Below are positions 58,801-61,800 of a stretch of DNA of 64,000 nt, piece after piece (within the stretch, counting starts at the first letter, position 1; each line of letters begins with the position of its first letter). Position numbers: made by a program. The stretch lies in NCBI RefSeq assembly GCF_057098645.1, contig NZ_CM169472.1; one strand, written 5' to 3'.

Positions 58801-61800
58801 TGGATATTCAGCGCCCGTAAATGTTCACTGAACCGTTTGTAATATGGATATGGTCATTCACCGTTTTGAAGCTGCCGCCCGCTTTCTTCGCCAGCGCCTT
58901 CATTTCACTGCTTAATTTACTCATGAATCCCCTGCAACATAAACAAACAGTCTCCGGCGTGTGCTGTTTGGCTGCGCCAGAACGATACCTTCACGCCGGA
59001 GTGGCTGGTTGTTGAGGTTTAAGGAGTTTCAGGCTGTACGCGGTACAGACTGCCTGACGAAGCAGGGGTGTCTCCGGAGCATCGTGCCCCCCTCGGTATC
59101 GATCTTTTTCTCCTTTACTCTGAGCTGACAGCTGCCCCAAAGGGCATGTCAGACGGCGGAAATATGGCGCAGGCCAGGACTGGCGCGGCTTGCGGCGGTG
59201 AGTTGTGCGGCGTCACTTTGCCCTGTCGCTGGCGCGACCAAAGTGACGCCTTGTCTGGTGCAGGGGGGAAACGTTGCGCTTCTGGTGCAGTATTCAAAAA
59301 TTAACAGTCTGGTGCAGATTAACGGTCACGCGGCAGCAAAGCCTGCTGTCTTTGCAGGCCGCAGCCCGTCATGTAAAAGGCGCTGGTCATCAGCAAGGGA
59401 TAAGTAGGCCGGAGAAATTCCGGCAAAGGAAAGCCGTTCAGCCGGTGAAGGCCATTGCGGTAAAGCGATGACGATGGAGCTGTCCTTGTATATATGTACT
59501 TCGCCTCAAACACTTTCGCGTTCCGGTATTGCGGAGGTCGTACCGGTAGCAAGGGCTGGTCGTCCTGTTAAATCAGGGGCTTCTTGCAGACCATGAAGCC
59601 AAAGGGTGCCCGAAGGCATAGTGCAGGAGGGAGATTACACCGTTATTTCTGGCGCAGAAAGGGGAAATTCATTTTTCTGGAAAAAGGGTTTCCCCTTGAT
59701 TTTAACGTGTATTTGTGAACGTGAAATGCTGAGCTAACCTCTCAATGACCGGATAACAGGCCGTGGCTTTTGCGATGCCTGCCAGAGATCATATTCAGAC
59801 TGCATCCCCGCCCATAGCTCAGCGCGGGTATTCAGCAGCGCCGCCAGACGCAGCGCCATATCAGCCGTCACTGGCGCATGTCCATTGAGAATGCGGGATA
59901 ACCGGGAGCGGGAAATGTTCAGCGCAGAAGCTGCCTGCACAATACTTGTGCCGCCCAGATAATCACGAAGAACCGCTCCCGGATGATGCGGATTAAACAT
60001 GCGCATAAAAACGACTCCGGCTGTGACCTTTACCAGCAGTGGGATGGTATCCTGCCGCGCTTCGCTTGTCTTCTCCCGGCTTTCCGCCAGCAAAACGCTG
60101 GTGGAAAGCCGGGAGAGTCCGATTTTACTGTAACGGTGCTCTTGCGGGTTCTGTTATCAGGAGTACCGCTTTCGCATGGGTCTCTCAGTGCGGTTGCCCT
60201 GATCATCGAAGTATCTGGACGGACAGATGATTTCCGGTGATGTTTCCAGCACATCCGCAATGAGTTTTTCGCCGCGCGGCCACGAACGGCTCAGCGCGTT
60301 TGCCAGCGTGGCGGACGCCAGTCCCGCGCTGCGGGAAACCTCAGCCAGCGATGTCCTCTGTTTTCTCAGTCCCGCGATAATATCGGCGGGGTGCCAGTCT
60401 TGCTGCATCATGCTGGCCTCCCGTCGATAACCTGTACGCCGTCAGCGGTACGTATCCAGTGCGGGGCGTTCAGATCGGCGGCAAAATACCAGACCAGCTC
60501 GCACAGCAGTCCGGTCAGCGTCGTTTCGGTTTCCGGTAACAGTGAGTGACCATTCAGTATCTGCGTCAGCGCCAGACAGTAATCGCAGAGTGATTCTGCA
60601 TCAGGTTCAAAACCGGGTGAAACATCGGGAACATCATTCGTAATAAAACCGTCGATCAGATGCGGCGGGATCGGCTCGTTCAGCGTGGGCCGCAACAGTG
60701 CAAGGCAGGTATTAAGTCTGCCACAGAGCGCCATTTTTAGCGCAGGATTGTGGCATTCGATTAGGGTCTGGGCGAATCGATCGCCGTGAGCGGTCAGAAT
60801 GGTGAAATCGGTAGCGGCGCTGAAAGGAATAGAGAGTAAATCGCAGTCAGGGGAAGGACTTGTAGCCATTGGACAATCTCCAGTATGTGGTTTTAAATCC
60901 ACCATCAGAGGTTCCAATCTCCTGGGTGGTGGACTGAGCGAGGTTGGAACTACCGATCATACTGGAACCGGCGCACTTTGCAGTGCCCTCACCCAGCCCA
61001 CCATTGAGGTACAGCCAAGCGCACGACACAAAAAATGTGTCGCCAGTATGAATAATCCGGGGTTCCAATCCCGACGCCTGATTTTGCAGACGCAGGCTAA
61101 GGATACTGTGATTAGCAATGAGTCACATGAGGGCATATGGATATCCCGGAGCAGACTTACCGGGGCCAGTACCTCGCCAGAAAGAGCGCCGTTCCTGTTA
61201 TTTATTATCCCCTTACCCGTATTGAAATAAAATTCTCACGGCGTGGTTTGCCAATAAACATTGTTCGCCCCTGTTGAGAGGTGCTCCTGTCCCCCAGACG
61301 CATTCCGCTAATCTCGTCCGGTGCAAGCCCCAGTCTCAAATCCCAGGCGAACTGATCACGCAACAGGAATGATACAAACGTGGTCAAAGGCTGATAATCT
61401 TCACCTTCCGGCAAAAAAGCCAGGTAACGTTCCAGTTTCAGGTTATTAATGCACAACAAAAATTTACCACTGAGATCCGGGATATGTCTGCCGATAATGA
61501 AGTTTTTTCCCAGCACCGATTTGCCCTGCAATCCCCCTTCCCCGGTCAGTTCACTGACCCCCAGCCGGTTCTGTTGTTCCTGCGGGATTGGCACCCGGCG
61601 CAATTGCCAGTTCTCCAGTTTCACATCTGACAGATCAAAACAGTGCTCAATAAGGTTACAGACAATTTCCGGCGAGCGCCCTGTTCCGGCAAGAATGCCG
61701 GCATATGCCAGCAGTTTACTGTGGCAGATATTAAGTCGCTCACGAACCCGCGGATTACCCAGCCCGATAAGTGAATATATGCTCTGCGATATGGCATCAG

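Follow-up and report, generated by a model that had tools for sequence, protein, structure and literature searches.

The window analyzed here, 64,000 nucleotides of Escherichia coli DNA (RefSeq assembly GCF_057098645.1, contig NZ_CM169472.1), carries three copies of a 10-bp direct repeat upstream of a recombinase-like pseudogene. Sequence comparison indicates that these repeats are probably cis-acting components of a MOB_M-type mobilization module, within its transfer-origin and leader region. MOB_M is a relaxase family related to tyrosine recombinases and is reported to be the commonest relaxase in the chromosomes of the focal species of a 2026 preprint (bioRxiv 10.64898/2026.01.13.699239). 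The repeats are best explained, with somewhat better than even confidence, as a cis-acting part of the transfer origin (oriT) and leader of such a module, whose enzyme would be a MOB_M relaxase that is a pseudogene in this strain. The known kind of element to be compared is the relaxase-proximal oriT region, and the repeats would be a variant of it. How tRNA-associated islands of this type move has long been unclear. To our knowledge, only three MOB_M relaxases have been studied so far, and we know of no nick site or mechanism described for the enterobacterial chromosomal ones.

In the proposed mechanism, D-CTGGYGCAG or its complement would act as the recognition element of the module. The 10-mer would most likely be bound by the two-domain recombinase-like relaxase or by a partner, and binding would build a nucleoprotein complex around the hairpin H2, where the strand would be cut and later rejoined.

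The repeats and their leader

The repeat TCTGGTGCAG is present in exact form on the plus strand at 59254–59263, 59281–59290, and 59308–59317, with start-to-start distances of 27 and 27 bp. The earlier note, made from the sequence alone, had reported three exact 10-bp copies at 27-bp intervals in noncoding DNA between a recombinase-like pseudogene and helix-turn-helix (HTH) regulator genes, and it was right on the copies and on their setting. On the minus strand, which is the strand of the relaxase-like gene, the three copies read CTGCACCAGA (59254..59317) and occupy the linker between two hairpins, H1 and H2. They are found 330–393 nt upstream of the gene start (58924), inside a noncoding leader of about 800 nt. 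The window contains 16 matches to TCTGGTGCAG with at most one mismatch against 3.66 expected, a number reached by none of 100 shuffles. Eleven of the 14 copies of the core CTGGYGCAG fall inside 57200–59700, where about 0.12 would be expected from the rate elsewhere in the window (Poisson P ~2e-18).

Tandem Repeats Finder calls no array at the repeats, and the two spacers between the copies, GGGGGAAACGTTGCGCT and TATTCAAAAATTAACAG, are unrelated to each other, so the repeats are not a simple tandem duplication. A small plus-strand protein gene, in which the 27-bp unit would represent nine codons with a repeated Leu-Val-Gln, deserves hardly any credence. RefSeq does list hypothetical proteins of 49–62 aa in three related loci (L002–L004), and the indel is a multiple of three. 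The frame, start, and end of the open reading frame vary, however, none keeps its position or frame across the repeat region in five homologous loci, no Pfam match is obtained, and the substitutions are without third-position excess. Searches against Rfam give nothing over the repeats beyond weak hits attributable to chance. The window yields no hit to the repeated RNA motif STAXI (RF01728) even with E allowed to reach 10, while the same model scores 110.6 bits in the related element SGI-4. A known RNA family over the repeats, including STAXI, was rejected on these grounds. The same applies to a promoter or terminator, since a consensus scan found such sites no more often than in shuffled sequence.

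On the gene strand, the leader is composed of H1, the CTGCACCAGA repeats, H2, two degenerate motif copies, the EFASI RNA, and the gene. H2 (59209..59250, minus strand) is a perfect 12-nt inverted repeat with the arms GGCGTCACTTTG and CAAAGTGACGCC (59209–59220 and 59239–59250). Of all leader elements, it is the one conserved most widely, and it is present in every clade examined, including SGI-4 and elements of Klebsiella and Pantoea, with 47–48 distinct versions across the family. Stem positions 2–12 are paired in 43–47 of 47 versions with GC, TA, and AT swaps, and RNAalifold identifies six pairs that are changed on both sides. Because the pairing is kept through these swaps, H2 is a real hairpin or cruciform. 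H1 (ACGGGCTGCGGCCTGCA...GCTGCCGCGTGACCGT, 59320..59371, minus strand) is a predicted fold that lies directly 5′ of the repeats on the gene strand. Its block is invariant in five E. coli-type loci, and its stem is kept in 29 sequences with changes that are one-sided only and mostly of the G-U type. The one-sided changes of H1 and H2 together are mostly G-U on the gene strand (about 16 versus 3), and the 10-mers are placed by the predicted fold in the unpaired linker between both hairpins. The conserved inverted repeats that are looked for in an oriT region are found here in H2, with its compensatory changes, and in the conserved H1.

Between H2 and EFASI lie the two degenerate motif copies (59163..59188, minus strand), which read TATGGCGCAG (59163–59172) and ACTGGCGCGG (59179–59188) on the plus strand. 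They are the counterpart of a good pair, spaced by 18 bp, that is located 3′ of H2 in most other genera. The hexamer TCTGAC (59148..59153, minus strand), a candidate processing or nick region, is placed between EFASI and the last antisense motif copy; nearly every clade of the family has it at about 55–70 nt 3′ of H2. EFASI (RF02957; 58979..59107, minus strand) scores 94.1 bits against a gathering threshold of 51.2 and is positioned directly upstream of the relaxase-like gene, as it is in L002–L005 and in SGI-4. The RNA has been detected by reverse transcription quantitative PCR (RT-qPCR) in vesicles of Shiga-toxin-producing E. coli (STEC; PMC12370729).

A homolog scan with one genome per species yielded 79 loci across Enterobacterales. 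In place of the three copies of the window, four further E. coli loci carry two at a distance of 27 bp; three of these loci are at tRNA-Asn, and the fourth is at tRNA-Asp, next to another type VI secretion cluster. The motif search over homologous loci, which the earlier note had proposed as a check, found a pair at 26–27 bp spacing to be kept in most E. coli relatives and in many Enterobacterales genera, with unrelated spacer sequences; the refuting outcome named in that note, a lack of conservation at every homologous locus, was thus not obtained. Within the clade defined by a protein identity of about 63% or more, the anatomy on the gene strand is constant. Its 5′ part consists of H1, CTGCACCAGA, a 17-nt spacer, CTGCRCCAG, 6 nt, and H2; its 3′ part continues from H2 with about 14 nt, CTGCACCAGA, 8 nt, CTGCGCCAG, EFASI, and the gene. 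The 17-nt spacer is fixed in length, and its sequence belongs to at least three unrelated types. Neighboring upstream copies are spaced by 18 bp in 16 cases, by 27 bp in 10, and by 26 bp in 2, with the 26–27-bp pair 5′ of H2 and the 18-bp pair 3′ of it. The H1-proximal copy is nearly invariant, and the second copy is absent in a few genera. Fixed spacing combined with free spacer sequence around a conserved hairpin resembles the protein-binding sites of a relaxosome, which is the leading reading as far as sequence can tell.

A different protein had been suggested in the earlier note, namely cooperative binding by the adjacent Ner-like or HigA-like HTH regulator. The HigA-like gene (59734–60036) and the Ner-like gene (60157–60411), both on the minus strand, do adjoin the repeats, and the copies are regularly phased. 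The repeats are nevertheless kept in L003, L004 (without HigA), L005 (without Ner), and L036 and pESI (with PemK/MazE instead). Their position is some 420 nt past the higA stop codon, on its 3′ side, and not at the promoter of either gene. In addition, the motif has no dyad, its field runs 2 kb through another gene, and 27 bp corresponds to about 2.6 helical turns, which puts neighboring copies on nearly opposite faces of the helix. As the regulators are dispensable, the repeats are 3′ of the genes, and the spacing is off the helical phase, operators of these proteins are very improbable, and the suggestion was given up.

The three-copy form is restricted to 37 of 5426 complete E. coli genomes, 29 of which are O145-like. 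BLAST alignments of other genomes break at the repeats and cover either the left or the right part of the query, and the two spacers of the window resemble two spacer types that occur separately in other islands. The best explanation of the third copy is therefore that two island variants recombined unequally at the 10-mer, and the copy would be needless for the function of the system. A distal antisense copy, CTGCGCCAGA (59648..59657, minus strand), marks the upstream edge of the conserved module and is invariant in five loci. Just past 59648–59657, L003 and L004 lose all similarity to the window. The distal edge copy and the three-copy chimera suggest that module boundaries and exchanges fall at motif copies.

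The partner gene and the transfer-origin reading

The pseudogene next to the leader (58041..58924, minus strand) encodes an “integrase domain” protein with PF12834 and PF12835, is disrupted by a frameshift and an internal stop, and is a homolog of MOB_M-type relaxases. An intact ortholog of 294 aa gives strong Pfam matches to PF12834 and PF12835 and a weak one to the general phage-integrase family. R147, K179, H241, R244, H275, and Y287, which form the catalytic R-K-H-R-H set plus tyrosine, are invariant in 26 sequences. Searching the PDB by sequence with the relaxase-like protein returned no match. The AlphaFold2 model of the ortholog (L002:3938-4822) has a predicted local distance difference test (pLDDT) score of 88.5 and matches two-domain tyrosine recombinases. 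Structural comparison ranks 2a3v, the Vibrio integron integrase with folded single-stranded attC, first by a small margin over XerA, lambda Int, and Cre. According to this model, the partner protein takes on a tyrosine-recombinase fold with a two-domain clamp, an architecture that would bind sites of about the length of the 10-mer.

The E. coli protein is 48% identical to WP_033567157.1 of SGI-4 (locus L007), which is a named MOB_M seed (bioRxiv 10.64898/2026.01.13.699239). PF12835 has served as the signature of relaxases like MpsA, the atypical relaxase of SGI1 (PMC10484663). Based on homology to the seed and on PF12835, the adjoining gene is a probable member of the MOB_M relaxase family. 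A homolog search meant for comparison with MpsA returned only unnamed close family members. An integrase adjoins the MOB_M gene in 96% of cases, and MOB_M occurs in integrative and conjugative elements (ICEs) of the MPF_G type or alone; the large intergenic region that comes first upstream of the relaxase gene was taken as the candidate oriT (bioRxiv 10.64898/2026.01.13.699239). The repeats are located in this region of the relaxase-like gene. As the gene is broken in this strain, any activity of the site would require a relaxase provided in trans.

The constant partner gene also bears on a second proposal of the earlier note, an iteron-like function. The copies are regularly spaced direct repeats, and the module takes the place where P4-like operons hold primase and origin genes, downstream of a C4-type immunity RNA, as would suit replication iterons bound by an initiator. 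The module, however, has no Rep or primase gene, the copies number only two or three, and their spacing does not correspond to whole turns of the helix. The sole constant partner is the recombinase-like relaxase homolog. With a relaxase-type gene as the only constant partner and no Rep gene, a transfer origin is indicated rather than a replication origin, for which the prospect is very faint. The term iteron-like applies loosely, in the sense of repeated cis sites in an origin, while its replicative meaning was dropped.

A strand-polarised motif field

The motif is not confined to the leader. The core CTGGYGCAG is found on the minus strand at 57291, 57347, 57382, 57514, 57957, 58346, and 58972, with degenerate copies in between, and on the plus strand at 59255, 59282, 59309, and 59649. 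From this distribution it follows that the orientation flips between 58981 and 59163, at EFASI. The first copy in the sense of the gene, TCTGGCGCAG (58972..58981, minus strand), overlaps the 3′ end of EFASI. Two sense copies lie inside the relaxase-like pseudogene (58346–58355 and 58785–58794, minus strand). Isolated sense copies follow 3′ of the gene at 57957–57966, 57721–57730 (one mismatch), and 57514–57523, all on the minus strand within 57291..57966. A phased sense array ends the series at 57382–57391, 57347–57356, 57320–57329 (degenerate), and 57291–57300 (minus strand), with spacings of 35, 27, and 29. The downstream layout is matched in L002–L005 and in other genera, where isolated copies about 200 bp apart past the gene are followed by a conserved purine-rich block and then by three to six copies spaced by 20–35 bp. 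In the window, the purine-rich block (57391–57444, minus strand) is made of repeated AAAGGGCC and AAGGGTAA units directly before the downstream array. Escherichia, Klebsiella, Brenneria, Entomohabitans, and other genera share this conserved block, which has no Rfam match.

The polarity was counted in 39 loci of the clade, which are related to one another, though the positions and numbers of sites vary between them. Counted from the gene start, the region between −800 and −200 has 117 copies in antisense and 0 in sense orientation; from −70 to +1700, the counts are 212 sense and 2 antisense. The density of the motif is 3.6/kb inside the field of about 2.4 kb and 0.14/kb outside, a 26-fold difference. 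Nearly all in-gene copies are built by Leu-Ala/Val-Gln codons (CTG GCG CAG) at sites where relatives carry other residues, which implies that amino-acid replacements together with the choice of codons created them. Upstream, in-gene, and downstream copies alike avoid a C immediately before CTGG. The motif follows the relaxase clade even when the integrase is only 27–35% identical or is absent from the fetched DNA. Arm-type sites of the P4-type integrase were rejected, as the field begins some 2 kb away from the tRNA end, too far for sites expected within a few hundred bp of the att core, and does not covary with the integrase. A comparable polar k-mer was sought in other relaxase clades, and none was convincing. 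The motif strings have no occurrence in the searchable literature, and neither repeats nor hairpins are mentioned in the MOB_M preprint (bioRxiv 10.64898/2026.01.13.699239). The internal anatomy and the polar motif field appear to be undescribed.

Several observations weigh against the transfer-origin reading as formulated above. Simple binding of a protein to duplex sites leaves both the near-pure orientation (0 of 117 upstream copies sense, 212 of 214 in and after the gene sense) and the selection of sites within coding sequence unexplained. Other MOB_M clades, including SGI-4, keep H2 and EFASI and do so without the 10-mer field, so the motif is no universal requirement of the family. Furthermore, MpsA, MobK, and TcpM are described as lacking a core-binding domain (PMC8152469), which this protein has.

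Orientation and coding-sequence sites are what an element acting in single-stranded form would explain. The upstream CUGCRCCAGA on the gene strand is the exact complement of the downstream UCUGGYGCAG, and pairing between the two could occur in either of two ways. A leader RNA, processed like the SGI1 sgm-sRNA precursor, would pair with many sites in the relaxase mRNA and its 3′ region; or the strand would be nicked at the flip near EFASI, and the ends of the transferred strand would form a panhandle that recreates duplex sites for rejoining. Pairing requires the purity of orientation that is seen, and the in-gene sites with their GCG codons reveal selection at the nucleotide level in the sense orientation only. 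The repeats are exposed in the unpaired linker, the G-U bias of the one-sided hairpin changes suggests that the gene strand folds, and EFASI RNA was found in STEC vesicles by RT-qPCR (PMC12370729). SGI1 depends on a transcript of 650–700 nt across its oriT (PMC6414798, PMC9299015), and the top structural match of the partner protein, the integron integrase, works on folded single strands. On the other side, a simple scan found neither a promoter nor transcript ends. The fixed spacing of 27 and 18 bp with free spacers is more like protein phasing, and the downstream arrays are looser (20–35 bp). Many downstream copies have a central C where most upstream copies have A, which produces an A-C mismatch. 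On balance, pairing is regarded as rather unlikely.

A more far-reaching claim is held to be doubtful, namely that the 10-mers form a strand-polarised cis signal of a new type at a transfer origin of the recombinase kind, where complementary copies flanking the cut site would allow pairing either between the ends of the transferred strand or between leader RNA and relaxase mRNA. If it were true, pairing would rebuild the duplex sites that a tyrosine-recombinase-like relaxase needs to rejoin or to regulate, and it would explain both the near-unbroken orientation and the sites forced into coding sequence. A polar field working by strand pairing would then represent a new way for a recombinase-type enzyme to handle single-stranded DNA.

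The field could also be read as an orientation cue for an enzyme moving along DNA or RNA, pointing on both sides from or to the H2/EFASI center, in the manner of Chi for RecBCD, KOPS for FtsK, or the repeats of Streptomyces TraB. The 26-fold density with a single flip point and the isolated copies about 200 bp apart through and past the gene would agree with this, and CTGGTG is common to the motif and Chi (GCTGGTGG). Half of the copies, though, are CTGGCGCAG with a central C and are not Chi-like, for which reason the Chi-like version was rejected, and the hosts all use standard Chi. No translocase gene travels with the module, and the field is short and restricted to one relaxase clade. A directional signal is accordingly considered quite improbable.

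The transfer-origin reading remains preferred, and the orientation flip suggests a possible position of the DNA cut. The elements that can be mutated are now defined and comprise H1, H2, the 10-mers at fixed spacing, the EFASI RNA, and the orientation-flip point.

Island context and likeness to known systems

The window comes from E. coli O145:H28 and is 100% identical to strain RM12761. The repeats are carried by a genomic island inserted at tRNA-Asn. The minus-strand order is the C4-type RNA set, a gene for an unknown protein (60408–60869, minus strand, in the island operon), the Ner-like gene, the HigA-like gene, about 800 nt of noncoding DNA with the repeats, EFASI, and the relaxase-like pseudogene. 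The HigA-family antitoxin gene (59734–60036) has no adjoining toxin gene, and a PemK/MazE pair takes the same place in some relatives. The C4 antisense RNA, isrK, and the a1/b1 targets (60922–61106, minus strand, by Rfam) form a P1/P4-type immunity set. The set heads an operon that runs through the unknown open reading frame and the Ner-like and HigA-like genes toward the relaxase leader; the island thus has a satellite-phage-like control region upstream of the mobilization module. A P4-type tyrosine integrase gene (55480..56742, plus strand) is located next to tRNA-Asn (55243–55318) and is convergent with the relaxase-like gene. No conjugation genes are found within the window on this island. 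A perfect 36-bp palindrome (CACCTTCCGTGATTAACA|TGTTAATCACGGAAGGTG) at 57154–57189 and a related imperfect 42-nt inverted repeat at 56900–56985 both occupy the interval that separates the motif array from the stop of the convergent integrase gene, and the pair may be a bidirectional terminator or a binding site. Other Rfam matches in the window (27612–27728, 49166–49282, 40822–40996, 35334–35506, and 49650–49701) include two identical ALIL pseudoknots, which are IS3-type frameshift elements, the sok antitoxin RNA, STnc100, and DicF; they reflect prophage and insertion sequence content upstream of the island.

Of 5426 complete E. coli genomes, at least 574 carry the module at the integrase end of tRNA-associated islands, and many other genera of Enterobacterales have it as well. 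The islands that bear it include type VI secretion islands of Shiga-toxin-producing O145. Citrobacter youngae (L015, L028, L051, L057, L059, L071, L088) and Affinibrenneria salicis (L019, L027, L032, L033, L038, L056) have at least six module copies in single genomes, and three modules, two of them inverted, lie within about 30 kb of one A. salicis scaffold. Part of the leader is matched by 147 Salmonella plasmids. The Salmonella Infantis pESI-type plasmid pN55391 (L006, 5900–6120) keeps H1, two copies, H2, and two more copies; there the leader lies downstream of a PemK/MazE pair, and a transposase fragment stands in place of EFASI and the relaxase gene.

SGI1 is alike in its tyrosine-recombinase-like relaxase (PF12835) and in a GC-rich oriT with inverted repeats upstream of the gene. 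Its order of oriT, an essential small RNA from a gene-strand transcript of about 700 nt, and mpsA (PMC6414798, PMC9299015) is paralleled here by repeats and H2, EFASI, and the gene. The core-binding-like part of SGI1 is a separate protein (MpsB), whereas PF12834 is fused in the present protein, and the published description of SGI1, on which the comparison is based, contains no direct-repeat motif or polar field. In SGI-4, the oriT is stated to have been localised experimentally (Neupane et al. 2025, cited in bioRxiv 10.64898/2026.01.13.699239). The H2 core (GTCACTTG...CAAGTGAC) and EFASI upstream of the gene are common to both elements, and the proteins are 48% identical. Where the E. coli island has the 10-mers, SGI-4 has STAXI and a CATTTGG-N2-CATTTGG repeat, with zero CTGGYGCAG sites. 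SGI-4 is a self-transmissible MPF_G element, in contrast to the E. coli island, which has no conjugation genes in the window.

The plasmid pIGRK has a minimal oriT just upstream of the gene for its tyrosine-recombinase-like relaxase MobK, with inverted repeats and two identical direct repeats, and MobK gives multiple shifts in electrophoretic mobility shift assays (PMC8152469). It differs in being a small AT-rich plasmid whose MobK has no core-binding domain and of whose direct repeats one (DR1-2) is dispensable; sequence similarity and a polar field are absent. EFASI is placed by Rfam upstream of integrase genes and downstream of tandemly repeated STAXI. Here it is directly beside the repeats, and the EFASI and STAXI models do not include the 10-mers. 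Plasmid iterons are likewise short, regular direct repeats in an origin-type region, but the present repeats have no initiator gene, only two or three copies, 27-bp spacing, and inverse copies over 2 kb. Chi and KOPS share with the motif a short, strongly strand-biased sequence that flips at one point. They are distributed genome-wide, whereas the field described here is local, covers 2.4 kb of one element, has another sequence, and is accompanied by no known reader.

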